A stretch of DNA of 30,072 nucleotides, taken from contig CAVXQJ010000016.1 in assembly GCA_963763745.1 (NCBI GenBank), positions 577,029-607,100 of the forward strand, read 5' to 3'. The stretch's first letter is position 1; each line of letters begins with the position of its first letter. The translations under genes and the position numbers were made by a program. Shown piece after piece: positions 1-17,270 of the stretch. The notes under the pieces were generated by a model. It was not told where the DNA came from, made no database searches, and saw only the letters and a list, made by a program, of their open reading frames with translations. The stretch comes from an uncultured delta proteobacterium (lineage in GTDB: Bacteria > Myxococcota_A > Polyangia > Polyangiales > Polyangiaceae).

Positions 1-364
1 CGCGGGCGCGATGCCGAAGGACGGCCCTTCCGCTGGCGTGACGATGTTCACCGCGCTCACCTCGATGCTCACGGGCATCCGCGTGCGCCACGACGTCGCG
101 ATGACGGGCGAAATCACGCTGCGCGGCCGGGTCCTCCCGATCGGCGGCTTGAAGGAGAAGGTCCTCGCGGCACACCGCGCGGGCATCAAGCGCGTCATCG
201 TTCCGGATCGAAACAAGGCGGACCTCGACGAGGTGCCCGCCGAGGTGAAGAGCGATCTCGAGTTCGTCTTCGTCACGAAGATGGAGCAGGTGCTCGAGGC
301 CGCGCTCGAAGAAATGCCGAAGCCGAAGCCCAGCGAAGCCGCGGCGCCCGCGCCGGCGAACTGA
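1..364 (+). CDS. lon: ATP-dependent Lon protease, C-terminal S16 proteolytic domain (5' part lies outside the window)
   Basis: The frame of ORF 11..364 stays open to the window edge. Motifs PKDGPSAG (catalytic Ser) and [19 protein letters not shown] (catalytic Lys) align to the Lon peptidase domain. Stop TGA at 362-364. Confidence 0.9.
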
Positions 365-384
365 GCCGAACGCCAGAAGAAGGG

Positions 385-424
385 AAACGCGCTGCATCGC
401 GAGATGCGGCGCGTTTCGTTTTTT
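385..424 (+). terminator. Rho-independent terminator after lon
   Basis: GC-rich hairpin AACGCGCTGCATC (386-398) / loop GCGAG / ATGCGGCGCGTT (404-415), followed by the T-rich run tcgTTTTTT (416-424). It sits between the convergent lon and kinase genes. Confidence 0.6.
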
Positions 425-458
425 GTCACCTGTCAACGCCGCGCCGCGGCGAGCATCG

Positions 459-2069
459 TCACTTCCGCCCGCGACGGGTGACCTCGGCGCACGCGCGCGC
501 GTTTCCGTTGCGACATGCGTAGCGGAGGTTGTCGCAGTCGACCGTGCCTTGCGCCGGGCTGCGGTCGGCGCGGAAGCCCGAGCAGCTCGCGCCCTCCATG
601 CCGAGGAACGCGTCGCCGGCCGTGCAGGGCAGACACGAGGAGAGCGTGCCGTTCGGCTCGTGCGTGTTGATGAGCTTACCGGCGCGCGTCGTGTCGCCCG
701 TGTAGCCGTCACACGGGTCGCCGTCTTTCGCGGTGAGCGTCTTGCCGTAGACCTCGTCTGCGCACGTCGGAGAGTCGTCGTTCGTCCACGGTGTCTTGCA
801 GAGCGAGACACCGGACGAATTGGTGCACTTGCAGAGAGACGGACCAAGCTTCTCTCGCGCGCACAGGGTCGCCGTGCTGCCGGAGACCGGAAGACACAAG
901 CACCCGAGCTCGCCCGCGAGCGCAGGCGACGTCGTCGCGGCAGTCCGCGCGCTCGCTTGCGGAGCGGGCTCTGCGACCGCGTGCGTGTCGGCTGCGGAAG
1001 TCGCGCTCGCGCTCGGAGCTGCAGACGCGATGGGTGTATTCTGCACATTCACGCTCGGAGCGCTCGTGGGCGATGGCGCGCGACGCGCGGCGAAGAAGAC
1101 CGCGGTCGCGCCAACCGCGAAGGCCGCCGCGGCGACGATGGGCATCGGTGAGCGACGAACATTGCCGGTGGAGGTTTGCTGCGGCGTCGCGTGGAGCGCG
1201 GCGGTCGTCGCGACGTTCTTCGCGCCCGGATTCGGCTCGGGCAGGATCGCAAGCGAGCCCGTCGTGGCGCCGAGCGCGCGCGCGACTTCGGCCATGTCGG
1301 CGTGGCGCTGCGCGGGGTCGATCGACATCGCGCGCGCGATCGTCAAGCTCACCTCGACCGGCACCTCGCGCAAGAACGCGTGGAGCAGCGCAACGTCCCC
1401 GGTGCTGGGACGCATTCCGCTCAAAAGCTCGTACGCGGTGACGCCCCACGCCCACTGATCCCACAGCGGGCTTGGCGTCGAGCCGGCGCGCTGCTCCGGC
1501 GCCATGTACGCGCTCGTTCCGACGACGCGTCCCTCCGCCGTCCGCACGCTCATCGGAACGTCCGACGTCGGCGCCGACGTGTCGACCGCGACGATGCGCT
1601 TGGCGATGCCGAAATCGAGCACGCGGATTTGGCCGTCGTCCTTCGCGACGATCACGTTCTCGGGTTTCACGTCGCGGTGCACGATGCTCTTGGCGTGCGC
1701 AGCGGCAAGCACGCTCGCGAGCTGTTTGAGCCACTCGAGCTTGAGCGTCACCGGCCCGCTCGCGCCGACGTATGCGCGCAACGTTTGGCCATCGATGTAT
1801 TCCATCGCGAGAAACGGGACGCCGTCGATCTCGCCGGCGTCGAGGAGCGTCACCGCGTTCGGATGTTTGAGCGCCGCGGCCGAGCGCGCTTCGGAGAAGA
1901 GCCGCGCGACGGCTTCGGGTTTGTTCTTGTCGCGCCGCACGATCTTGAGCGCAACGAGACGCTGGAGCATCGTGTCGAACGCGAGCATGACCTCGCCCAT
2001 CCCGCCCGTGCCGAGCGGCGCGCGGATCTCGTAGCGTCCGAAGCGCGTGCCGACCTCCATGATCGCCAT
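459..2069 (-). CDS. Hanks-type Ser/Thr protein kinase, single-pass membrane protein with Cys-rich C-terminal (extracytoplasmic) domain
   Basis: Kinase motifs GTGGMGEV, VALK, HRDVKPEN, DFG, TSAYMAPE. Ala/Pro linker, a predicted TM segment (MPIVAAAAFAVGATAVFFAA), then ~150 aa with 14 Cys. The ORF extends to 2105; starts at 2069 or 2060 fit kinase N-termini better. Confidence 0.85.
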   Translation of the reverse strand: MAIMEVGTRFGRYEIRAPLGTGGMGEVMLAFDTMLQRLVALKIVRRDKNKPEAVARLFSEARSAAALKHPNAVTLLDAGEIDGVPFLAMEYIDGQTLRAYVGASGPVTLKLEWLKQLASVLAAAHAKSIVHRDVKPENVIVAKDDGQIRVLDFGIAKRIVAVDTSAPTSDVPMSVRTAEGRVVGTSAYMAPEQRAGSTPSPLWDQWAWGVTAYELLSGMRPSTGDVALLHAFLREVPVEVSLTIARAMSIDPAQRHADMAEVARALGATTGSLAILPEPNPGAKNVATTAALHATPQQTSTGNVRRSPMPIVAAAAFAVGATAVFFAARRAPSPTSAPSVNVQNTPIASAAPSASATSAADTHAVAEPAPQASARTAATTSPALAGELGCLCLPVSGSTATLCAREKLGPSLCKCTNSSGVSLCKTPWTNDDSPTCADEVYGKTLTAKDGDPCDGYTGDTTRAGKLINTHEPNGTLSSCLPCTAGDAFLGMEGASCSGFRADRSPAQGTVDCDNLRYACRNGNARACAEVTRRGRK

Positions 2070-2673
2070 GGTACGCTCGACGGCCATGCACGACGGCGTA
2101 TTCATCCACGAATCGGCCTACGTCGACGAGCCATGCACGATCGGCGAGGGGACGAAGATCTGGCATTTTTGCCACGTGCAGCGCGGCGCGAAGATCGGAC
2201 GCTCGTGCGTGCTCGGGCAGAACGTCAACGTGTCGAACGACGTCACGATCGGCGATCGCGTGAAGATCCAGAACAACGTGTCGGTCTACACGGGCACGAC
2301 CGTCGAGGACGACGTGTTCCTCGGCCCGTCGTGCGTGCTCACGAACGTGTCGAACCCGCGCTCGGAGATCAACCGCAAGGCCCAATACGAACGAACGCTC
2401 ATTCGGCGCGGCGCGACCATCGGCGCGAACGCGACGATCGTGTGCGGCGTCGCGATCGGTCGTTACGCGTTCATCGCGGCGGGCGCGGTCGTCTCGCGCG
2501 ACGTCCCCGACTTCGGTCTCGTGATGGGCGTGCCCGCGCGTCGCGTCGGTTGGATGAGCAAGCATGGCCATCGCCTCGAGAACCCCGACGCGGACGGCGT
2601 GATGACGTGCCAAGAGGGCAAGCTCAGGTACCGCGAAGAAAGCGGCGTGCTCCGCTGTCTCGACGAAGCATGA
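2047..2673 (+). CDS. Hexapeptide-repeat (left-handed beta-helix) sugar N-acetyltransferase, WbpD/PglD-like
   Basis: Repeated [LIV]GxxxxI hexapeptides (IGEGTKI, IGRSCVL, IGDRVKI, IGANATI, IGRYAFI). GTG at 2047; alternative ATG starts at 2059, 2068 and 2086. Stop TGA 2671-2673 overlaps the next ATG. Confidence 0.8.
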   Translation: MPTSMIAMVRSTAMHDGVFIHESAYVDEPCTIGEGTKIWHFCHVQRGAKIGRSCVLGQNVNVSNDVTIGDRVKIQNNVSVYTGTTVEDDVFLGPSCVLTNVSNPRSEINRKAQYERTLIRRGATIGANATIVCGVAIGRYAFIAAGAVVSRDVPDFGLVMGVPARRVGWMSKHGHRLENPDADGVMTCQEGKLRYREESGVLRCLDEA

Positions 2674-3758
2674 TGCGCATTCCATTCGTCGACTTGCGCC
2701 GCGACGTGCGCGACGACCGAGAGCTCGAGGCCGCGTTTCGTCGCGTGCTCCAGAGCGGGAAGTACATCCTCGGCGAAGAGGTCGAAGCGTTCGAGCGCGA
2801 GTGTGCGCGCGTCGTCTTTGCGCGTCACGCGATCGGCGTGTCGTCGGGCACCGACGCGCTGCTCGCGTCGCTGATGGCGCTCGGCATCGGGCCGAGCGAC
2901 GAAGTGATCTGCCCCGCGTATACGTTCATCGCGACGGCCACGGCGGCATCGCGTTTGGGCGCGACGCCGGTCTTCGCGGACGTGAGGCCGTGCTGTTTCG
3001 GTCTCGACGCAGACGACGCGGCGCGCAGGATCACACGGAAAACACGGGCGATCATCGTCGTGCATCCGTTCGGGCAAGTCGCGCACCTCGAGGCCATCGA
3101 GCGCGTCGCGCGCGAGCACGGCATCGCGCTCGTCGAGGACGCCGCGCAATCGATCGGCGCGCCGCAACGCGTCGCTGGACGCGTCTCGTGTCTCTCGTTC
3201 TTTCCGTCGAAGAACATCGGCGCGCTCGGCGACGCGGGCCTCGTCGCGACGGACGACGACGAGCTCGCGGCGATCGTGAGGTCGCTCCGCGTGCACGGCG
3301 CCGTCGCGAAGAACGATCACGTGCGCATCGGCGGCAACTTCCGCATGGATGCGCTGCAAGCCGCGCTCCTTCGCGTGAAGCTCCGTCGCATGGACGAAAT
3401 CACGAACAAGAGGCGCGCGAACGCGACGCTCTACGACGAGCTCCTCGCGGGCGCGACCGGCGTGAGCACGCCGAAGCGGTGCTCGGGCGCGCACGTCTTC
3501 AACCAATACATCGTGCGCTCGAACGCGCGCGATGCGCTCCGCTCTCGCCTCGCGGACGCGAGCATCGAGACGGCCATCTACTACCCGCGCCCGCTCCACG
3601 AGCACGCGTGCTTCGCGCACCTGCCGCGCACGAGCCTGCCGGTCGCAGAGGAAGCCGCGAGGACGACGCTCGCGCTCCCGATTTTCCCGGAGCTCACGGA
3701 GGAAGAAATCCGTCACGTCGCTTCTCAGGTCGCTTCGAGCACCGAGCGAAGCAAGTAG
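2670..3758 (+). CDS. PLP-dependent sugar aminotransferase, DegT/DnrJ/EryC1/StrS family
   Basis: 362 aa. Family-typical N-terminus (IPFVDL...), the PLP-Lys context SFFPSKNIGALGDAG and the C-terminal YYPRPLHE...LPIFPELTEEE. ATGA start/stop overlap with the upstream acetyltransferase. Confidence 0.85.
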   Translation: MMRIPFVDLRRDVRDDRELEAAFRRVLQSGKYILGEEVEAFERECARVVFARHAIGVSSGTDALLASLMALGIGPSDEVICPAYTFIATATAASRLGATPVFADVRPCCFGLDADDAARRITRKTRAIIVVHPFGQVAHLEAIERVAREHGIALVEDAAQSIGAPQRVAGRVSCLSFFPSKNIGALGDAGLVATDDDELAAIVRSLRVHGAVAKNDHVRIGGNFRMDALQAALLRVKLRRMDEITNKRRANATLYDELLAGATGVSTPKRCSGAHVFNQYIVRSNARDALRSRLADASIETAIYYPRPLHEHACFAHLPRTSLPVAEEAARTTLALPIFPELTEEEIRHVASQVASSTERSK

Positions 3759-6727
3759 AGCGCTTCGGCGCGCTCGACGGGGTGTAGCTCCGCGAGCGGC
3801 TTCACGACTTGGAGACGAAAGCCCGTGCACATCGTCTTGCTGTTCATCCACTTCGTGTCGGCGTGGAGCTGGACGGCGCCTTGCTCGCGGCTCATCTGGT
3901 ACCAGTTGCTCACGCCTTGCTCGCTGAGCACGCGCTGGAACGCGGAGTAGAAAATCGGCTGCGAGAGCTCGCGCCGGATCTCTTGCTTCGCGTCGTCGTC
4001 CGCCGCGATCGGGAGCGGCGTGCGCGCGAGCTGCGCGACGGGTTGAATGAGCCCGTAGTCGGTGAACGTGCGCGCCCACGTGTCGAGCGTCTTCGTGTCG
4101 AGCTCGGCGAAGTGCGGAACGCGGACCAACTCGGTGTCGCCGAGCGTGAGTGCGGAGTCTTCGATGTCAGCGAGCGAGCTGTCTTCCGCGACGCGAAACG
4201 TGACGAGCGCGCCGTCGCGCTCGACGGCCCAGACCATCGCGCGCGCTTGATGCTTGCCGAGCGGGTGATTCGCCCAACCCGCGAGGAACCGCGGCGCGGG
4301 AACGCGACGAGCGCTGCGCATCGCATCGACGAGACCGCGAGCGCGAAGACGCGCGATCGTGCGCACGTCTTCTTTGAGCTCGTCCCACCGCTCGCGCGCG
4401 AGGCGAATCGCGATCGGATCATCGGACGATTGCGCGCGCGGTATCGCAGCGAGCCTCTTTTCGCCGAGAAATAGAATCGGCGCGAGCGTCGTGTCGAACC
4501 CGACTTGTAGCGTGCGCGCGCCGTATTCGAGCGACGTCGTGCCCTCTTCGGCGAGCGCGGTCGTCGGCAGGAGCGTCTCGACGATCGCGTCGACGGACGT
4601 CGAGAGGCCGGTCGCGACGTTGCGCATCGAGTGTGGAGCGTCGCCGCGTTCGTGCGCGGTCGCGATCTCCATCGACGCGGAGCGCACGCCGCGAATCGCG
4701 AGGTGCTCGAGGACGCTATGAATCGTCGTGTGCTTGAGCGCGGGCGTGAGGCGACGAATCACGAGGTCGTTCGCGAAATGAACGAGCGACCAACGCATCC
4801 ACTCGAGCGCATCTTGTCGCCATCGCTTGGCGCTGTCCGCGAACGCGGCGAGGTCCCACACCATCTCCGCCAGCGAGTCCGGATCGCATGCAGCTTTCAA
4901 GTCCTCGAGGCCTGCGTACGGTTCTTCGATCGGCGAGAACGAGAGGATCTCGAGGACCCGCTCGTGCGCGTCGTCGGCGAACATTCGCCCATCGCGAAGT
5001 CGCGCGTGCTTGACGTGCGGCGCTTGCCCGAGCTTCACGGATTGCGAGGGAACGTCGAGGCGCGCATCGCGATCGAGGAGCTCCGCGATCATCGCCGTGT
5101 GCTCCGTCGGCACGAACGAGAGAATCGTCTCGCGATGACCGAGGCGCGCGAGCTTGCGGAGGGCGAGCACGCACGCGTGCTGGTAGTTGGGCTCGTGAAC
5201 GTGGGCGAGCAAACCGAACGCGGCTGCGCGCGGCTGCGCTTCGAACCACGACCACGTGTGTTGTCGCGCGAGCCACGCCGTCGCGAGGCCGAGCGCGATG
5301 CCCGCGTCGTCGATGCGATCGCGCACCTCGCGTTCGAGGTACGCGGCGCGACCCGTCTGGCGCAGGCCGGGGAGCGCGCGCTCGCCGAACGCGCCGAGCA
5401 TCAGCACGTCGATCGTGCCGGACCAGCGTCCGGCGTTGTAGAAGGCAAGCACCGTCTCGATCGGTATGGCGGCGTCGGCGAACTGGAACGAGTACACCGA
5501 GCCTTTCGCGCCTTGCGCGCCCATGAACTCGTTCAGCTGCTCCGCGTTCATGTACGGCTTGCCGCTGCGCTGCCTATCGAGCTCAGCGAGCGCTTTGTTC
5601 TTTTGTTCTTCCGAGACCTCGAGGCGCGATGACCACGTGGTGACATCGAGCCCGAGCTTCGGAAGCGCGAGCGCTCCTTTTCTCCACGGCGCGTCGCGCA
5701 GCACGGCGGGCATCGCGGGATCGTCCAGCGCGACGGTCTCGCCGGGCTCGGCGCTCGTCTGATCGCCGCAGATCTTGATGAGAAGCTCCTTCGCGAGCGC
5801 TGCGTTCCGCGATGCGCCCTCGCTCGCGGCGGGGAGCACTGCGGCCGCGAGCTTCTTGTCGTGCGTGAAGTAGTCGCCGATGATCTTGCGCGTCGGTGGA
5901 TTCGAGATTTGCTTCGCGAGGTGCTTCGCGGACGTTTCGTTGACGATGACGCTCATCGCGAGTGCGTGCGACAAACGGCGAGCGTGGCCCGTCGCGGCGG
6001 GCGCGAGCGAGAGCAAGATGGGGAGCGCGTCTTCGCCGAGCGACGCGACGATCTCGGGGTACGCGATCGCGTCGCTCTTCGTCGCGCGCGCGACGAGCGT
6101 GCGCATCGCGTCCTTGTCGCGCACGATCGCGAGCTGCCTCGAGTCGAACTTCGGCGCTTGGTCGAGGATCTCCGCGGCTGCCTGCGCGCGCCACGCCTCG
6201 TCGTCGAAGAACGCGTAGGCGAGGTGCTCGTGGACTTCGACGTCGCCGGCGTCCCACGTGGCCTGCGCGAGCTCGCGACACTTCGCGCGCACCGAGGCGT
6301 CGCGCTCCGACGCCAAGAGGATGCGCAGCATGTCGCCGTTCGGGCGTTTCTTGGCCGGTTTGATCACGCCGTCCACGTTCTCGAAGCGAGGCGTGATGAG
6401 AAGCGGCGCCACGCGTGCGGTCCCGAAGTGCTCCGCGAGCCACTCGCACGTGCGATCGCCGCCGGTCGCCACGGCGAAGACCGCGAGCTCGTCATCGGTG
6501 AGCGCGGTCGGGGCGTTTTCGAATTCGACGACGCGCGCGAGCACCGCGGCGATTGCCGGATCGTCTGCGCGAAGCGAGCGCTTCGCCCAATCGACCATGT
6601 ACTTGATGCCGCTCCACTCGCTGTAGCGCCAGCGGCCGCGGTTGTCCTTCACGTCGGTCGAGTTGCGCGGCGCGATGCAAATGCGCGCGGCGGTGTGCCA
6701 ATGAAGCGTCATTGGGAATGCGCGCAT
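3725..6727 (-). CDS. Large (1000 aa) alpha-helical protein of unknown function (possibly DUF4132-like C-terminal region; unverified)
   Basis: Uninterrupted 3-kb ORF with coding-like composition and no recognisable catalytic motifs. Starts 6 nt after the EBP stop. Its 3' end overlaps the convergent aminotransferase by 34 bp. Confidence 0.7.
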   Translation of the reverse strand: MRAFPMTLHWHTAARICIAPRNSTDVKDNRGRWRYSEWSGIKYMVDWAKRSLRADDPAIAAVLARVVEFENAPTALTDDELAVFAVATGGDRTCEWLAEHFGTARVAPLLITPRFENVDGVIKPAKKRPNGDMLRILLASERDASVRAKCRELAQATWDAGDVEVHEHLAYAFFDDEAWRAQAAAEILDQAPKFDSRQLAIVRDKDAMRTLVARATKSDAIAYPEIVASLGEDALPILLSLAPAATGHARRLSHALAMSVIVNETSAKHLAKQISNPPTRKIIGDYFTHDKKLAAAVLPAASEGASRNAALAKELLIKICGDQTSAEPGETVALDDPAMPAVLRDAPWRKGALALPKLGLDVTTWSSRLEVSEEQKNKALAELDRQRSGKPYMNAEQLNEFMGAQGAKGSVYSFQFADAAIPIETVLAFYNAGRWSGTIDVLMLGAFGERALPGLRQTGRAAYLEREVRDRIDDAGIALGLATAWLARQHTWSWFEAQPRAAAFGLLAHVHEPNYQHACVLALRKLARLGHRETILSFVPTEHTAMIAELLDRDARLDVPSQSVKLGQAPHVKHARLRDGRMFADDAHERVLEILSFSPIEEPYAGLEDLKAACDPDSLAEMVWDLAAFADSAKRWRQDALEWMRWSLVHFANDLVIRRLTPALKHTTIHSVLEHLAIRGVRSASMEIATAHERGDAPHSMRNVATGLSTSVDAIVETLLPTTALAEEGTTSLEYGARTLQVGFDTTLAPILFLGEKRLAAIPRAQSSDDPIAIRLARERWDELKEDVRTIARLRARGLVDAMRSARRVPAPRFLAGWANHPLGKHQARAMVWAVERDGALVTFRVAEDSSLADIEDSALTLGDTELVRVPHFAELDTKTLDTWARTFTDYGLIQPVAQLARTPLPIAADDDAKQEIRRELSQPIFYSAFQRVLSEQGVSNWYQMSREQGAVQLHADTKWMNSKTMCTGFRLQVVKPLAELHPVERAEALYLLRSVLEAT

Positions 6728-6733
6728 CGTACC

Positions 6734-8056
<1,323 letters not shown>

Positions 8057-8071
8057 CGGTCGATCATACTC

Positions 8072-9591
8072 TCAAAGATAAGGATTCGGCGGTGGGCCCG
8101 ATGCGGTCGCTGCCGGCGTCGTCGCGGTCGCAGTCGCGGTCGCGCTCGGCACGAGTCGCGGTCGCGTCGTGCGCGTCGTCATCGAGGCCGTCGCGCTGGC
8201 CACATCCGCGCTGTGCGCCGTGAACGTGAGCGACGCGATCGCCGGCTCGGCGATCGACGCGGTCGGAAGCGGGCTCTCTGCCGACGCGGCAGCTCTCACG
8301 GGCGGCGGCTTGTGCGTTGCGAACACGACCGCGCTCGCACCCGCGAGGAGCGCGATGCCCGCGACGACGACGACCACCGTGAGCGGTCGCGCGCGCGACG
8401 GGACTCCCGCGGGCGCGAGCGCGTCCGAAGTCGTTGGCTCCGCGCTTCCATAAACCGCCGTGTGCGCGGGCGCGGCGACGTTCGGGATCAGCACCGGTGC
8501 ATCGATCTCCGTCGTCGCCACCGCGGCCGGCGCGGCGGAGGGCGCGCTCGACGGCACGCTCGACGGAATGCTCGGCGGCTCCGCGCCCATCAAGCTCAAA
8601 AATCCCGGCTCCGACGCGAGCCGCTCGCGCACCTGCGCGCGGCGCGCCTCGAGCTGCGTCGCGGCGACGCGTTTGACGATCTCCGACACCTCCGCGTGCG
8701 ACGCGACGAGCCCCGCGCGCGCCGCGCACGACTCGAGCGCCGCTGCGAACGCGCGCGTCGTCGAGAAGCGTCGCTCCGGATCCTTGTCGAGCGCCGTCAC
8801 GAACACGTCGTCGAGCGCGGCGAGCTCCGGCGCGCCCGCGGACACGCGCAGCGCCTCGTGCGTCATGATCCGCTGCGCCGTCTCGACCTCGTTCTCGCCG
8901 CGGAACAACCGCTTCCCCGCGAGCGCCTCCCAACCGACGACGCCGAGCGCGAAGACGTCGACGCGGCGATCGATGCGGCGCCCTTGAACGTACTCGGGCG
9001 ACATGTACGCGAGCTTGCCTTTGAGCATGCCGCTGTTCGTCACGGCCATCGCCGTCGCCTTCGCCACGCCGAAGTCGGACACGCGCGTCGCGCCGTCGAT
9101 GCCGATGAGGAGATTCTGCGGCGACACGTCGCGATGCACGAGCCCGACGGGTCGTCCCTTTTCGTCGAGCAGCTCGTGCGCCGCGTGAAGCCCCGCGCAG
9201 GCTTCGAGCAAGATGCGAACGACGACGCGCGCCGGCACCTTCTCGTTCGCCTTGCTGGCGAGCACGAGCAGCTCGCCGAGCGACGCGCCCTCGATGTAGT
9301 CCATCACGAGCCGGATCTCTTCGTGCCGCCTTCGCCGGACGTGACGTACACGTCGCGCACGTCGACGACGTTCACGTGATGAATGAGCGACGCGAGCCGA
9401 GCCTCCGCCACGAGCTCCTTGCGGTAGCTCGGATCATCGAGCAGGTGCGGATGGGGTTCTTTGATCGCGACGATCTGGCGGAAGCCCATCGAGCCGCGCG
9501 CGGCGCCGACGTAAACGGTGGCCATCCCGCCCGACGCCAGCTTGAACAAGATGTCGTAGCGGGCGTCGCTCTTCCGCCGCTCCGTCGCCAT
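8072..9591 (-). CDS. Hanks-type Ser/Thr protein kinase with C-terminal TM segment and Ala/Ser/Thr-rich tail; reading frame interrupted by an apparent 1-nt deletion near 9311-9330
   Basis: Subdomains I-IV (GGMATVY, VAIK) lie in ORF 9304..9591. Subdomains V-XI (LVMDYIEGASL, HRDVSPQN, DFG, SPE) lie in ORF 8072..9307, in another frame. Restoring one base between ...SGEGG and EEIRLVMDY rejoins them. Confidence 0.75.
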
Positions 9592-9605
9592 CCCAGAACA
9601 CTACG

Positions 9606-10559
9606 TCAGAAGGACATTCTCCAAAAGATCGCAGCGCCATGCGTGCTCGGGGCCACCTCGACCGTCGCGTGCCATCGCGTGAGGGCTCCCGCGACGATCG
9701 TCCACACGGCCGCTGCGATCGAGACGCCGAGGAGAGCGTCGCCCGTGGCCATCGTCGCCGTGCCCGAGCTCGCGAGCGAGTTGCACGAGGCCGTCGTTTG
9801 CGTGGCGCACGACTGCGAGACGAACGAGTCGTGCGTCGACTGCGTCACGGCGAGCAGGATCGCCGACGCCGTGCCGAGCGCCACCGTCGCGCCGAGGCTC
9901 GCCCAAAACACCGCCGGCGGAAGACCCTTCGCGCGCGCGCGCAGGGCGATGGGTTGCTCGCTCGGCGCGATCGTCACGAGCGGCGGTGGCGGCGTCACGT
10001 CGGTTCGCGTGTAGATCGTCGGTGGTGTTTGCGGCGGCGGCGATGGCTCGATCGCGACCTCCGCGTCCGCCGTGACGTCGATGGCGCGCGCCTCGCTTCG
10101 GCCATCGATCGAAAACGTGATCGCATGCGTCCCCACCGCGACCCAGCGCGCGCGTCCGATGTCGAGCGCGACGCCATCCATCGTCGCCGTGCACGCCGCG
10201 GGACACGCTGCTTTCACGCGGCCCGCGCGATGCGCGAGCTTCGCCTCCGCGGCGCGTACGGACGCCTCGAGCGCGCCGCTCGCGTCTCGCGATCGCGCGC
10301 GCTCGAGGAGCTCCGCGCCGAGCACCGCGTCGTCGGCCTTCACGCACGCGTCGAGCGCCGCTTGAAGCGCCACGGGGCTCGGCGCGATCGCGTCCGCGCG
10401 CGCGTACGATGCGGCGGCCTTCGCGAGCTCGCCGCGCGCGTATTCGCGCGTGCCCTCGTCGTACGCCGCGCGTGCTCGAGCGCGATCGTCGTCGGCGTGG
10501 GCCGCGTGCGCCAGCGCCATCGCGACGGCGATCGCGCCGAGGGTCGCGCGCGCTCTCAA
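9606..10559 (-). CDS. Secreted/membrane protein: signal peptide, helical periplasmic region, Pro-rich linker, two TM segments
   Basis: TTG start at 10559-10557 overlapping the upstream TGA (TTGA), with an alternative GTG at 10565. Signal peptide MRARATLGAIAVAMALAHAAHA. PPPQTPPT/PPPP linker. Hydrophobic segments AVFWASLGATVALGTASAILLAV and LLGVSIAAAVWTIVAGAL. Confidence 0.6.
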   Translation of the reverse strand: MRARATLGAIAVAMALAHAAHADDDRARARAAYDEGTREYARGELAKAAASYARADAIAPSPVALQAALDACVKADDAVLGAELLERARSRDASGALEASVRAAEAKLAHRAGRVKAACPAACTATMDGVALDIGRARWVAVGTHAITFSIDGRSEARAIDVTADAEVAIEPSPPPQTPPTIYTRTDVTPPPPLVTIAPSEQPIALRARAKGLPPAVFWASLGATVALGTASAILLAVTQSTHDSFVSQSCATQTTASCNSLASSGTATMATGDALLGVSIAAAVWTIVAGALTRWHATVEVAPSTHGAAIFWRMSF

Positions 10560-10978
10560 TGGCACCCCGCGCCCGTGCACGAGCAGCCCGCCCCCGTGCA
10601 CGTGTCGTTGCACGTCCCGTCGCACTGAAACGAGCAACCGCCTCCGCTGCAAGACACGTTGCACACGGCGCCCGCCGCACATTCGACCGAGCAGCCGCCT
10701 TGGTCGCAAGAGAGGTTGCACGTCGAGCCGGCCGGGCACTTGTAGTCGCATCCGCCGCCCGCGCACGATCCGTTGCACACGTCGCCCGACGAGCAGGCCA
10801 AGCTGCACCCGCCCGACGCGCACGTTCCGTTGCAGATGTCGCCCCCGCACGTGTAGCCAACGGGCGCTTGCGCGTCGCCTGGCGGCGGTTTGTTTTCGCC
10901 GCCCACGCTCCAGTCGTAGAGACACGAGACGAGCAGCGCGCTCGTCACACTCGCTACGATCGCTTGCCTCGCGCGCAC
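10556..10978 (-). CDS. Small lipoprotein with tandem 19-aa Cys repeats (C-x3-C-x4-C-x3-C-x5)
   Basis: GTG start at 10978 with an AGGAG Shine-Dalgarno 7 nt upstream. Signal peptide plus lipobox LVSC. About four repeats of CN[GLV][ST]C-xxGGC-xxxC-xxGxx; 20 Cys in ~95 mature residues. Confidence 0.7.
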   Translation of the reverse strand: MRARQAIVASVTSALLVSCLYDWSVGGENKPPPGDAQAPVGYTCGGDICNGTCASGGCSLACSSGDVCNGSCAGGGCDYKCPAGSTCNLSCDQGGCSVECAAGAVCNVSCSGGGCSFQCDGTCNDTCTGAGCSCTGAGCH

Positions 10979-10982
10979 TCGC

Positions 10983-11633
10983 TCACTCCTTCGACAGCGT
11001 GAACGAACCCTGCTCGGGCGAAGAGCCGTTCGTGTGCCTGTAGTTCATGCCGTTTCCCTGCACGCAGAAAGCGTACTCGTTTCCGTCGCCCGTGACGATC
11101 GTGTCGCCTTGCACCGTGTAGGTCGTCGAGCCTTCGTCGCTGAGCGTGGTGGTCACGTCGCACTTGCATCCACTGCTCCCGTCGTCCGCACACGACGCGG
11201 TCGTGGTGCCCGCGGCCATGTCGCTCTGCACCGCGGCGCATCCGCCGGCGGGCACGGAGCACGAAGCGGGGACGTCGAGCGTCGCTTTTCCCGTCACCGT
11301 GTATGCGCGCGAGACGTTGCCTCCTGCGAACGCGACCTGCGCGGTGACGGTCGCCGACGTGTTCGTGATCGACGCCCCGGGACACGCGCTCGTCAAGCCG
11401 GAGAGATCGAGCTCGGCGCAACCGCCCGTGTAGCTCCATGTGCCTTCCACCGCGCCGCCGCACGAGGTCGTGCTCGGACACGACGCTTCGATGCTCACTT
11501 GCGCCGGCTGCGGGGCGCTCGCCTGTGAGTCGCCCGCCTTGCCTGCGTCGCCTTGGCTCGCGGGAGCGGAGCTGCACGCGAAGAGCCCGAACGTGAAGAG
11601 AATCGAGAGTGCCCGAAACGATGAGTGGCGCAT
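10983..11633 (-). CDS. Secreted lipoprotein, Ser/Thr/Gly-rich with 10 Cys, unknown function
   Basis: ATG at 11633 preceded by GGAGG (9-nt spacing). Signal peptide MRHSSFRALSILFTFGLFAC with lipobox LFAC. The stop lies 4 nt before the next gene's GTG. Confidence 0.65.
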   Translation of the reverse strand: MRHSSFRALSILFTFGLFACSSAPASQGDAGKAGDSQASAPQPAQVSIEASCPSTTSCGGAVEGTWSYTGGCAELDLSGLTSACPGASITNTSATVTAQVAFAGGNVSRAYTVTGKATLDVPASCSVPAGGCAAVQSDMAAGTTTASCADDGSSGCKCDVTTTLSDEGSTTYTVQGDTIVTGDGNEYAFCVQGNGMNYRHTNGSSPEQGSFTLSKE

Positions 11634-11705
11634 GGGATGGAACCTCCACACGCTTCCTCTTCAAGTCGCGTTCCACACGAAACATGTTGAAAATAGGCGT
11701 TTGCG

Positions 11706-11765
11706 TGCGTCACGCGTGACCGCTTTCGGCGACCCCGCGCGAGGTGCATGCGTCACGGGTGACGC
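11706..11765. promoter_or_regulatory. Two 16-bp palindromes GCGTCAC-NN-GTGACGC (11706-11721, 11750-11765) in divergent intergenic region; candidate operator / enhancer sites
   Basis: The palindromes are near-perfect and perfect inverted repeats, centres 44 bp apart. A weaker third half-site pair lies at 11785-11797 (ATGACGCGTGTC). Both 16-mers are conserved exactly in the right-arm copy (16123-16138, 16162-16177) although the surrounding sequence has diverged. Confidence 0.4.
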
Positions 11766-11816
11766 ACCGCTGGTATCGTGAGCGCATGACGCGTGTCTCG
11801 TTCTGTTCCGTATTCG

Positions 11817-11832
11817 CGGCACGCCGTTCGCC
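11817..11832 (+). promoter_or_regulatory. Candidate sigma54 (-24/-12) promoter cGGCACGccgtTcGCc upstream of the Nudix gene
   Basis: Matches TGGCACG-N4-TTGC at GGCACG and the T-GC positions, with correct GG-N10-GC spacing. It lies 37 bp before the ATG at 11869 and 55-110 bp downstream of the tandem palindromes. The match is weak. Confidence 0.2.
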
Positions 11833-11868
11833 ACGCTCGAATATCCGCGCACGTGCGCGAGCTGCAAG

Positions 11869-12331
11869 ATGCAGACATGGGCGAATCCGATTCCCGTGTC
11901 GGTCGTGTTGTTGCCCGTGCGACACCGCGCGCGCGAAGGTTTGCTCGTCGTGCGACGCGGCATCGAGCGGGTCTCGGGGAGCTCGCGATCGTCGGAGGAT
12001 TCCTCGAGGAGCACGAGACGTGGGCGGAGGGCGGGGCGCGCGAGCTTCGCGAGGAGACTTCGGTCGTCGTCGACGCGAAGACGCTCGAGCCGTTCTGGTT
12101 CACGTCGACCGGCCGAAGCCGAATCGCGTTCTCTTGTTCTCGCTCGCGCCGCCTGTCGATTCGAGCGGGCTCGCGCCGCTCGCCCCGAACCACGAGACGC
12201 TCGCGCGCGGTCTCGTGTTCGGTCCGCGCGGTCTCGACGACGTCTTCGCGTTTCCTCTGCACGCAGAGGCCGCGCGGAGATTCTTCGCGTCGCGCAACGC
12301 ATCGGGGGAACATGACTTCGCCGAAATATGA
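11869..12331 (+). pseudogene. Nudix hydrolase interrupted by two 1-nt deletions (near 11968-11970 and 12098-12110)
   Basis: The N-terminus NPIPVSVVLLPV...GLLVVRRGIE reads in frame 1. The Nudix box GGFLEEHETWAEGGARELREETSV reads in frame 2. The C-terminus NRVLLFSLAPPVD...FFASR reads in frame 3. The right-arm copy reads RRGIEPGLE straight through the first break. Confidence 0.6.
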
Positions 12332-12932
12332 TCTCCTCGCGGCGTGGCACGCGCGCGCCGATGTCTTGCTCGACGAAGCGCTCGCGCTCCTCGTCGATCA
12401 CGAGGAGTTGCCTTTTGCGGACGGCGAGTGGGTGCGTCAGCTCGCGCGATTTCGATTCTCCGCGCAGCACGTCGCGCCGGTCGTCGCGCTCATCCGCAAA
12501 CGCGATCCGTTCCTGTGCGAGGCGGGTATCGTGCTCGCGGCATCGCTGCTCGAGCGGAATCGCGACGCGGCGGCGGAAGTGGACGCAGCCGTCGCATCCG
12601 TGTTCGAGGCGCCGCCCGTCAATCCGTGGATCCTCGAAGCAATCGCGTCGCTCGCATCGCGCCACGCGGAGCTCGCGCGGTTCCCGCTCACGTATCGCCG
12701 GCTCGTCGTCGAGCTCGAGGCGCGCCCATCGATCGCGATGGAGCCGCAGCGCATCATGCGCAATCGCGCGATCGCTCCGCATCGCAGGTTCATCGGAATG
12801 TTCGAGCACCACATCCTCAGCGCGCAAACGCAGACGGAGCGCGAGCGTCTCGTCCTTCCGCTCGTCGAAGCTGCGCTCGGCACGCGCGGATTCGAAGCGA
12901 CGCGCGACGCGCTCGCTCGACGCTTCGGATGA
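12312..12932 (+). CDS. Hypothetical protein (~206 aa, alpha-helical, no recognisable motifs)
   Basis: Intact ORF from ATG 12312 to TGA 12930-12932 with coding-like composition. It overlaps the Nudix 3' end by 20 bp. Confidence 0.5.
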   Translation: MTSPKYDLLAAWHARADVLLDEALALLVDHEELPFADGEWVRQLARFRFSAQHVAPVVALIRKRDPFLCEAGIVLAASLLERNRDAAAEVDAAVASVFEAPPVNPWILEAIASLASRHAELARFPLTYRRLVVELEARPSIAMEPQRIMRNRAIAPHRRFIGMFEHHILSAQTQTERERLVLPLVEAALGTRGFEATRDALARRFG

Positions 12933-12965
12933 TGGCCATCGGCGCCGGAGGCGCCAGAGCATGTG

Positions 12966-13910
12966 ACTAATGAACCGGTGGCAGCGAGATCTTGAACACG
13001 TCCCACGCAGGGCGTGTGGTTGTTCTCCGGCCGCGGGTTGGTTCCCACAGGTAGAGCGCGGCATACGTCGTGCACGGTTCCGTTCGCGACGACGACGGGC
13101 GTCACGTAGAGCTGTGGGTTTCCCGCTTCGTCCCGCACCGAGCTGAAGACGACCCAGTAGAACGTGCGGCTGCCGCTCGCGGGCGACGCTTGCGGCGCCC
13201 ACTTCGGCCAGCTGTTCGTCACGCCCGGGAGATTTTTTCCCGGTGCACGCGGGCGGATCGTTCGCGGCGAGTCGCGTCGCCGTTCCGCCGCTCGCGGGAA
13301 TGGACGAACACCTCCGCTTGCGGCTGGTTGTACATGTTCAAGTTGTGCCGATGCGATCGAACGCGAGGAGCTCATGGTCGGGCGAGTACGCCGGGGTAGT
13401 ACTCTTCGTAGTTCGCGTCGGGACGCGCCGGAGATCGGCGTCGCCGTGCCGCCCGCGCGGTTCGCGTACGGGATCGAATAGAGATCGGCCGAGCCGTTGT
13501 CGAGGCGACCGGTGACGACCGCCGTCGTCGAGCACGTAGACGATCGTGTTGCCGTGGTCACTACACGCGGCGCCGCGCCTTTGCGCGTGTCGCCGGTGCG
13601 CAGAAACGTGCCCGTCGCGGTGCCGTTCGCGACGCCGAGGAATCGACCCCAGCTCGAAATCGGAGTCGTTGAACGTCGTCACGACGACGTAGTCGTTCTG
13701 CGGCCCAATGCGCGGGCGGACGTCACGCTAATCCCGCGCGGCGCGTGCTCGACGCCGCTTTGCCCGCCGCGCCAGAGAAACGGCGGAACTTGTCCGACGG
13801 TGTTCTGCTCGATCGAGGCGATCGCGTTGTTCCAGCCGTTCGAAGTGCTGAGCTCCGCGTAGAGGCCATCGGCATGCGAGCATGCTGGCAGCCGATGCAC
13901 GATGCGCCGA
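12966..13910 (-). pseudogene. Fragment of a PD40/TolB-like beta-propeller protein, multiply frameshifted and truncated at the palindrome centre
   Basis: Protein-like segments sit in three minus-strand frames: ...PAYSPDHELLAFDRIGTT...; DLYSIPYANRAGGTATPI; LPGVTNSWPKWAPQASPASGSRTFYWVVFSSVRDEAGNPQLYVTPVVVANGTVHD. The frame runs across the centre as GAIVYWTTEGRIFAQ. Confidence 0.4.
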
Positions 13911-16837: not shown

Positions 16838-17270
16838 GTGCGCGCGAGGGCGGAAAGCAAAATGCGTAGCAAGAGTGTCAGACGGAGCAGGCGGTTGCTG
16901 GTCTCGTGTCTCTACGACTGGGAGAGGCGTGGGCACGAAGAAAACAAAATGCACGCCAGGCGAAGCGCAAGCGCCCGTTGCTGGCCATGTGCGGGGGCGA
17001 CATCTGCAACGGACGGCACAGTCGGGCGGGTGCAGCTTGGCCTGCTCGTCGGGGCGACATGTGCAACAGGAAGTGTGCGCGGGCGGCGGGATGCGAACTA
17101 CAGTGCCCCACCACTCAAAGCCTCCGCTTGCAACCTCTCTTGCCGACCAAGGCGGTACTCAGTGCGAATGTGCGGCGGGCACCATGTGCAACGTGTCTTG
17201 CAGCGGAAGACGGAATGCAACAACACATACAGGGCACTTCCGTGCACGGGGCGGCAGATCGTAGTTGACG
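16838..17270 (+). pseudogene. Decayed copy of the Cys-repeat lipoprotein
   Basis: MRAR...LLVSCLYDW signal/lipobox at 16838. GGDICNG..., SGGCSLACSSG and GGTQCECAAGTMCNVSCSG are scattered over three frames. Confidence 0.5.

Follow-up and report, generated by a model that had tools for sequence, protein, structure and literature searches.

The lipoprotein described here is encoded at positions 10556-10978 (minus strand) of a 30,072-nucleotide stretch of Polyangiaceae DNA (contig CAVXQJ010000016.1), which as a whole is called the window. It is built from a 19-residue cysteine repeat and is predicted to have the same fold as the DUF2807/DUF4097 'putative adhesin' lipoproteins (3pet (BF0245), 3jx8, 3ljy; also 7muc). 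The latter are only 3-9% identical to the Cys-repeat protein and have a hydrophobic core, no Cys ladders and no C-x3-C-x4-C-x3-C-x5 pattern; the Cys-repeat query gave no match to DUF2807/DUF4097 models above the Pfam and NCBIfam cut-offs, and its family profile found no such chain in the PDB. The RTX blocks of CyaA and region IV of the Marinomonas antifreeze protein MpAFP (3p4g) have turns of 18-19 residues held by Ca2+ and Asp/Gly-rich nonapeptides, whereas the Cys-repeat domain has arcs of the type x-G-G-x and x-x-G-[AS]-x flanked by Cys, no GGxGxD motif, no conserved Asp and no Pfam RTX match; the likeness is one of fold only, with no sequence similarity. The self-associating autotransporters TibA, AIDA-I and Ag43 also contain 19-residue repeats, but these are large, Cys-free, three-sided passengers exported by a C-terminal barrel.

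Cys-rich repeats are known from two further groups. The antifreeze protein of Tenebrio molitor is a Cys-rich solenoid of 12-residue TCTxSxxCxxAx repeats with a narrow core spanned by one C-x5-C disulfide per turn and polar residues flanking the inward Cys of the flat face. This eukaryotic, secreted protein differs from the lipoprotein with its 19-residue turn and two putative disulfides per turn; it shows no sequence relationship and is not among the fold-search matches listed. The TIGR02232/DUF4215 repeats, as in TraA, likewise form Cys-rich tandem arrays in exported myxobacterial proteins, but are of ca. 37 amino acids with another Cys pattern; the initial annotation of this stretch was right to keep them apart, with no match of the query at E<=10 and none among 60 family members at E<=1 (Pfam, NCBIfam).

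Jelsbak, Givskov and Kaiser reportedly described in 2005 myxobacterial pathways that combine a Ser/Thr kinase with an FHA-domain sigma-54 enhancer-binding protein (cited in PMC4320627). The operon containing the Cys-repeat gene encodes the same type of pair (a Pkinase and an FHA-Sigma54_activat-HTH_8 protein), but differs by two added lipoproteins, an exported membrane protein and a non-canonical -12 dinucleotide (GA) in the putative promoter; no such set was found described in the literature. The Cys-repeat family is large and uncurated, and the operon was previously unannotated. As a whole, the best explanation, with a probability of roughly 0.6, is that the protein is a small lipoprotein with a disulfide-ladder solenoid that acts as an envelope component of a pathway leading from the kinase to the FHA activator.

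The cysteine-repeat protein and its predicted fold

The gene and the parts of its product are as follows.

10556-10978, minus strand: Cys-repeat lipoprotein gene, an open reading frame (ORF) with GTG start for 140 amino acids plus stop, unannotated in the source assembly
10986-10991, minus strand: Shine-Dalgarno sequence AAGGAG, read from the sequence 7 nt before the GTG start, within the last codons of the upstream gene
10922-10978, minus strand: signal peptide, residues 1-19, lipobox L-V-S-C, Cys19 as predicted lipid anchor
10850-10921, minus strand: flexible Pro/Gly-rich tether, residues 20-43, with low predicted local distance difference test (pLDDT) scores and differing in length and sequence between orthologues
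10559-10849, minus strand: predicted beta-solenoid domain, residues 44-140, about 5 turns of C-x3-C-x4-C-x3-C-x5 plus the C-terminal cap CSCTGAGCH

This stretch is a real coding gene. Translation bears out the lipoprotein signal noticed initially: the N-terminus reads V-R-A-R-Q-AIVASVTSALLV-S-C19, with VRARQAIVASVTSALLVS-C19 as the signal, and L-V-S-C fits the lipobox pattern [LVI][ASTVI][GAS]C, as do the lipoboxes GLASC and LLAGC retained in the orthologues. The mature protein consists mostly of tandem Cys repeats, and a count of the gaps confirmed the proposed 3-4-3-5 spacing. From C49 onwards the Cys-Cys gaps are 3,4,3,5 (three times), then 3,4,3,3 and 3,4,1,4, corresponding to three complete 19-residue units, a fourth of 17 residues and the cap CNDTCTGAGCSCTGAGCH; Gly-Gly stands before every second Cys. 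The domain holds 22 Cys in the 96 residues 44-139 (23 with the lipid-anchor Cys), not twenty as first stated. The Cys autocorrelation peaks at lags 19 and 38, and none of 200,000 shuffles of the mature sequence reached at least 3 full-period matches (maximum 2). At the DNA level the tandem repeat is weak and partial, so the regularity resides in the protein, where the periodicity is exact.

The orthologues of two related loci (L024 and L025, see below) are 48-52% identical to each other and to the window protein, with a ratio of nonsynonymous to synonymous substitution rates (dN/dS) of 0.40-0.63, and all three conserve every Cys, the number of turns and the Asn of the first strand. In a six-frame scan with the family hidden Markov model (HMM) the ORF scored E = 4e-26; an exact database look-up did not find the protein on record. 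An exhaustive search with a five-sequence HMMER profile retrieved 782 representatives of clusters at 50% identity with E<=1e-3, 189 of them at E<=1e-10. That the frame is a GC-rich non-gene, periodic by chance or through a DNA-level tandem repeat, can be dismissed as practically impossible: gene callers passed over it in three assemblies and an overlapping frame is likewise open, but the G+C content at third codon positions of 0.84 is confined to this frame (0.54 and 0.69 in the other two on that strand), a Shine-Dalgarno site, a lipobox and stop/start coupling are all present, and the protein period, the syntenic orthologues with all their Cys and the many homologous clusters effectively refute it. 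The non-coding artefact named at the outset as what would overturn the annotation is ruled against on the same grounds.

Structure prediction had been proposed as a check, and AlphaFold2 (AF2) yielded a regular, strand-rich solenoid. With five sequences the pLDDT was 85-90 over the repeats; with a 60-sequence alignment, the model of residues 38-140 reached a pLDDT of 90.5 and a predicted template modelling score of 0.79, and residues 2-39 scored below 50. In the model each 19-residue turn comprises a 6-residue strand (x-C-N-x-S-C) and a 4-residue strand (x-x-x-C). The modelled turns are stacked and of equal length, with parallel strands at the same repeat position, as is characteristic of beta-solenoids. 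Foldseek searches with the model gave weak matches, all of them to solenoids. The top match, 6x62, is an unidentified component of the Legionella Dot/Icm outer-membrane core complex, and 7muc is a DUF2807 component of the same machine; the others were 3pet, 3jx8 and 3ljy from Bacteroides/Parabacteroides, the CyaA RTX blocks, the Marinomonas antifreeze protein, TibA and Ag43. Each has a compact, right-handed helix or roll of beta-strands. The bacterial helices of 18-19 residues among them are closer analogues than the insect antifreeze proteins to which the initial annotation likened the repeat; internal C-x5-C disulfides would be common to both, but the insect comparison stands as an analogy only.

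The variation of the Cys positions supports one of the two putative disulfides of a stapled solenoid. Counted over turns with intact flanking context (reference 533 intact turns), the C-x5-C pair, made up of the final Cys of a short strand and the opening Cys of the long strand that follows, was lost jointly 15 times and singly 3 times, with A, V, S or L as replacements. Such pairwise loss and replacement is the behaviour of disulfide partners. The C-x4-C pair was never lost in the same turns and its pairing is assigned by elimination. When 563 units of 192 proteins are profiled, the four Cys are invariant, the two inward positions between them are hydrophobic and the outward positions hold variable polar residues; the arcs read G-G (74% and 92%) and G-[AS] (58% and 84%). 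From this profile, the core would consist of two disulfide ladders flanking a thin hydrophobic column, and each turn is probably pinned by two disulfide bonds. A beta-solenoid with disulfide staples, as already suspected initially, is the best-supported fold for the domain, and the models predict the solenoid itself with high confidence. If correct, this would be a new construction principle for such a fold, two disulfide ladders per turn replacing Ca2+ or a large hydrophobic core, which would make it of interest for protein design and very stable scaffolds.

The high Cys content also led to the idea of a metal- or redox-binding module, and a periplasmic metal-binding or storage protein in which 22 thiols bind Cu(I), Zn, Cd or Fe-S-like clusters, comparable to metallothioneins or copper storage proteins, is a rival interpretation. 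It would agree with the C-x-C-x4-C-H sequence at the C-terminus and with a redoxin/thioredoxin gene near one family locus. However, Cys are lost in pairs rather than in fours, with small or hydrophobic substitutes, and the terminal His is unconserved (the orthologues end in P and Q), which makes metal binding unlikely. The AF2 model with Cys at inward alternate positions and the export to an oxidising compartment indicated by the lipobox also argue against it; no metal-homeostasis genes are linked in the window or in the related loci L024-L026, and no metal-binding family was matched in Pfam or NCBIfam by the query or 60 members. We consider this interpretation clearly improbable.

The five-gene operon and its upstream region

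In the window the Cys-repeat gene is the second of five tightly spaced genes on the same strand; the other four and two upstream elements are given below.

10983-11633, minus strand: lipoprotein A, first gene of the operon, ORF of 216 amino acids with ATG at 11633, no significant Pfam match
9606-10565, minus strand: exported membrane protein of ca. 318 amino acids, with predicted signal peptide, periplasmic domain of ca. 190 residues and two C-terminal transmembrane helices
8072-9591, minus strand: Ser/Thr protein kinase (Pfam Pkinase), frameshifted near 9304-9433
6734-8071, minus strand: enhancer-binding protein of 445 amino acids, FHA - sigma-54 AAA+ - HTH_8 (Pfam FHA, Sigma54_activat, HTH_8)
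11660-11675, minus strand: -24/-12-like element TGGAACGCGACTTGAA, an invariant block in the three-way upstream alignment, of sigma-54 type with non-canonical -12 GA
11709-11763, strand not assigned: palindromes GTCACGCGTGAC (11709-11720) and GTCACGGGTGAC (11752-11763), candidate enhancer sites for the FHA-sigma54 activator

The start of the membrane-protein gene overlaps the stop of the Cys-repeat gene. Orthologues of the membrane protein are found at loci L024, L025 and L026 (the last from Minicystis rosea), each followed by a kinase and an FHA-sigma54 activator. A six-frame HMM scan located Cys-repeat orthologues in gaps that were uncalled or called antisense at L024 (5678-6067) and L025 (5576-6001), with E of about 1e-26, and the order and orientation of the five genes are conserved at both loci. 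Lipoprotein A occupies the same position there, with 67% (L024) and 49% (L025) identity. The activator is 77%, 71% and 62% identical to those of L024, L025 and L026, and the kinase parts are 85% (N-terminal) and 58% (C-terminal) identical to the single kinase of L024. The mature N-terminus of the Cys-repeat protein, C-[LF]-Y-D-[WF] (10910-10921, minus strand, in the window), is also conserved at L024 and L025 and could be a sorting signal or interaction motif.

The intact kinase orthologue of L024 has 486 amino acids with a single transmembrane segment (387-405) and some 80 low-complexity residues outside. With such a short outer tail and no sensor domain in the kinase, the exported proteins are plausible input components. 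The window kinase is broken into an N-terminal ORF of 95 residues and a C-terminal one that is read in a different frame. Logan contig ERR11594405, which is independent, has the same split, so that either true pseudogenisation or an error common to both may lie behind it. The membrane protein has 53 homologues in Polyangiaceae, Minicystis and Labilithrix, all lacking a Pfam domain. A relationship to VKOR, indicated by a faint match of residues 224-307 in the two-helix C-terminus (E 0.12), was rejected: there is no CXXC motif and no third or fourth transmembrane helix, the loop with the conserved C-x7-C would lie on the cytoplasmic side, and none of the homologues has a Pfam domain. A Rosetta-stone link between the membrane protein and the kinase-fusion family member P0147 was likewise discarded, as the two show no similarity.

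The Cys-repeat gene was missed in all three assemblies examined because a Cys/Gly-rich ORF loses to overlapping or antisense frames. In one, the database entry with 100% identity to the membrane protein (607-kb NCBI contig) is called 40 residues too long, i.e. 358 amino acids, and runs into the Cys ORF; in another, the gap is left uncalled; in the third, an antisense ORF of 86 amino acids is called. The independent Logan contig has the same gene order and a called 216-residue lipoprotein A, with 300 nt left uncalled at the Cys gene. The family probably has more members than protein databases show.

Upstream of lipoprotein A the three clusters share an invariant TGGAACGC-N2-CTTGA ca. 30 nt before the ATG, and in the 428 kb scanned TGGAAC-N5-TTGA is confined to these three orthologous positions. 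The window, L024 and L025 all have TGGAAC-N5-CTTGA, in which the -24 GG is present, whereas the -12 dinucleotide reads GA instead of GC (expected TGGCAC-N5-TTGC). Palindromes of the type (T)GCGTCAC-N2-GTGACGC(A) lie some 35-100 nt upstream of the element in the aligned clusters; they are conserved in L024 and, with one mismatch, in L025, and one of them is also present upstream in Minicystis L026. Within the left arm of the window, which is mirrored in its right arm (see below), GTCAC-N2-GTGAC occurs only at 11709 and 11752, with two mirror copies in the right arm. These palindromes would be the candidate enhancer sites, and the operon-encoded FHA-Sigma54_activat-HTH_8 protein the activator, that a sigma-54 promoter calls for. 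No sigma-70-type promoter was predicted across the operon, and the few terminator-like matches on its strand lie inside coding sequence. An extracytoplasmic function (ECF)-type promoter with GGAAC as -35 was rejected, as the three loci share no conserved -10 CGT. We tentatively assign the element to a sigma-54-type promoter, with the tandem palindromes as putative enhancer sites for the activator that the operon itself encodes.

A more distant family member at locus L012 (40% identity) also adjoins a kinase and an FHA-sigma54 activator, the latter 46% identical to that of the window; its other neighbours were rejected as homologues of the window genes, similarity being limited to the activator and the Cys-repeat protein. 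The Cys-repeat gene of L012 lies directly behind a near-consensus TGGCAC-N5-CTGCT with both dinucleotides. Canonical sigma-54 promoters are not family-wide and were seen at L012 and L013 only. Between the activator gene and the sigma-54-like promoter of L012, at ca. 4650-4850, some 15 tandem copies of the 15-nt unit GCTGCGAGAACGSCC could be an activator-binding array or a microsatellite. In the window, a 1002-residue DUF4132 gene (3725-6733, minus strand) abuts the activator gene, outside the cluster conserved in L024-L026.

Possible role in the cell envelope

According to the proposed mechanism, the Cys-repeat protein would be exported by the Sec system, lipidated at Cys19 and oxidised in the periplasm. 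The tether of ca. 24 residues would carry a rigid right-handed beta-solenoid of about 5 turns and 2.4 nm length, with each turn formed by two short strands joined by the Gly-Gly arc and the G-[AS] arc. Four Cys and two hydrophobic residues per turn would point into the core, the disulfides would span the Gly-Gly arc (C-x4-C) and the G-[AS] arc (C-x5-C), and the resulting ladders may stand in for a larger hydrophobic core or bound Ca2+. As conserved positions are almost all structural, the domain may be an extracytoplasmic scaffold or binding module, with selection acting on the Cys/Gly scaffold and the surface varying among lineages; in this lineage one face would carry two ladders, one of conserved Asn and one of largely conserved Ser/Thr. 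Sorting of the lipoprotein to the outer membrane is uncertain; it is suggested by a +2 residue that is neither Lys nor Asp, a rule that is uncertain for this clade.

The five-gene operon would be transcribed from the sigma-54-type promoter with its upstream activator-binding palindromes, and the Cys-repeat lipoprotein may be part of an extracytoplasmic input complex or a co-regulated output. Its most likely role is that of a stable envelope scaffold or ligand-binding partner in a module of kinase, FHA activator and sigma-54. By tying two lipoproteins and a membrane protein to the kinase/FHA-sigma54 pair, the operon offers an entry point to the envelope input of sensor-less myxobacterial kinases.

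Several points weigh against this explanation. The fold is a prediction, and the disulfide pairing and handedness are derived on indirect grounds. Every family match in the annotated database carries the label 'hypothetical protein' only. Minicystis L026 lacks both lipoproteins but has the membrane protein, the kinase and the activator, so this core of three can do without them, and the pathway may be inactive in the strain of the window as the window kinase is frameshifted. The sigma-54 assignment is weakened by the -12 GA. Myxobacteria have very large numbers of kinases and sigma-54 activators (PMC4320627), and the adjacency at L012 could therefore be coincidence. Across the wider family the context varies, with P0001, P0002, P0165, P0201 and P0176 lying among unrelated genes, so the kinase link may hold for this subgroup only; for this subgroup the link to signalling genes is firm.

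The alternative that survives best, although unlikely, is that the lipoprotein serves as a sentinel of redox state or oxidative folding: with 11 disulfides, its folding would report the envelope redox state or Dsb capacity to the membrane protein and kinase. RcsF and NlpE of E. coli are disulfide-containing sensor lipoproteins and provide an analogy. The predicted operon partners, a kinase without sensor domain, an exported membrane protein and an FHA-sigma54 activator, are consistent with such a function, as are one homologue adjoining an ECF sigma factor and FecR anti-sigma pair, another adjoining a redoxin and LolA, and P0147, which is itself a Ser/Thr kinase ectodomain. However, the argument is drawn from genomic context alone, most family members have no signalling neighbours, and a generic scaffold would account just as well for the fusions to OmpA, hydrolase and VWA domains.

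In its fullest form the proposal would make the Cys-ladder lipoprotein the extracytoplasmic sensing element of a eukaryote-like Ser/Thr kinase that has no ectodomain, with eleven disulfides reporting the redox or oxidative-folding state and the signal relayed through the membrane protein, the kinase, phospho-Thr/FHA recognition and an autoregulating sigma-54 activator. We regard this as rather improbable; if true, it would show bacterial Ser/Thr kinases receiving their input by a new mechanism and provide the first function for an unannotated family of about 800 clusters ranging from Myxococcota to corals.

Very improbable, finally, is a surface-array protein whose outward Asn and Ser/Thr ladders (C-N-x-S/T-C) make up a flat polar face of regular spacing that binds ice, mineral or polysaccharide, similar to beta-helical antifreeze proteins, or are N-glycosylation sequons. 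The N-x-S/T motif occurs at the same strand position in 5/5 turns of the query (N50, N69, N88, N107, N124), in 4/4 of L025 and in 3/4 of L024, and the structural matches include MpAFP and further beta-helices that bind ice. Family-wide, however, only 6% of the units have the motif; there is no sign of a cold habitat, a lipoprotein facing the periplasm would meet no ice, and no N-glycosylation system was seen among the neighbouring genes. We know of no N-glycosylation system in Myxococcota. The Asn ladder could serve the structure, form a binding face or be a row of sequons; in beta-helix turns such ladders are also common as a purely structural element.

Family members and the mirror copy

The family is populous, with most of its 782 clusters from Myxococcota, and is absent from Pfam, NCBIfam and the PDB. 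The Cys-repeat protein itself gave nothing relevant in Pfam, NCBIfam or PADLOC, so the profile searches proposed initially matched no characterised family. A scan of 60 members against Pfam and NCBIfam at E<=1 showed no recurrent family; the stray matches were two to DUF2807 (E 0.039), one to LiaG (E 0.046) and one to AIDA-I (E 0.36), and a relationship to the latter was rejected, the faint match being noise. PDB sequence searches with the query and family profile also returned noise only (TibA at E 3.9, scorpion toxin, thaumatin). Literature searches for the C-x3-C-x4-C-x3-C-x5 repeat found DUF4215, CAA-domain and antifreeze papers but no description of the repeat.

A word-indexed search with the protein gave four weak relatives that have in common the Cys register and a C-terminal C-x-C-T-G-x-G-C motif. 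Almost all of the top 151 cluster representatives contain the exact C-x3-C-x4-C-x3-C-x5-C unit, usually in 3-4 overlapping copies; they are ca. 130-250 amino acids long and most have a lipobox. Named sources are Myxococcota, Polyangiaceae, Bradymonadia, 'Deltaproteobacteria' metagenome-assembled genomes and one coral protein mislabelled Tenascin-X. A profile search of genome contigs added one distant Polyangiaceae locus. Metagenome scanning with the single protein gave no match and with the family alignment 9 loci, mostly short.

Among 42 longer members surveyed for fusions, six carry an OmpA-type peptidoglycan-binding domain and two an alpha/beta-hydrolase, with single cases of a Ser/Thr kinase ectodomain with PEGA (P0147), CARDB, FG-GAP, VWA and DUF3060; in one eukaryotic protein the repeat is fused to a seven-transmembrane (7TM) receptor. 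In every case the setting is extracytoplasmic or in the envelope, which fits a generic rigid scaffold or binding module.

The initial annotation also pointed out a decayed second copy of the gene.

16838-17270, plus strand: degenerate mirror copy of the Cys-repeat gene with many small indels, 83% column identity, broken in all frames

The copy exists, but it belongs to a window-wide mirror image: 118-13908 is mirrored at 27265-14024 with 77-80% identity, the two arms meeting ca. 115 nt apart. The family HMM matched the copy in no frame. The right arm has about 650 gap openings (one per ca. 22 nt), a G-to-A bias, an AT skew of up to ca. +0.27 and no intact long ORFs. Its substitution-to-indel ratio of ca. 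2:1 is unlike natural decay and resembles more a fold-back chimera or unpolished long-read segment. The right arm thus looks like a technical or assembly artefact, and its copy is no evidence of a paralogue; the left arm is corroborated by independent data (the database entry and the Logan contig).

The proteins P0008, P0010, P0014, P0126 and P0186, and one further member with a 7tm_2 domain, are long, Lys-rich and eukaryote-like, and their likeness to the bacterial proteins may stem from homology, horizontal transfer or convergence. Their related repeats have no Pfam domain over them and are mostly in an 18-residue register, C-x3-C-x4-C-x3-C-x4. This set includes the coral 'Tenascin-X' protein and the 7TM-receptor fusion.

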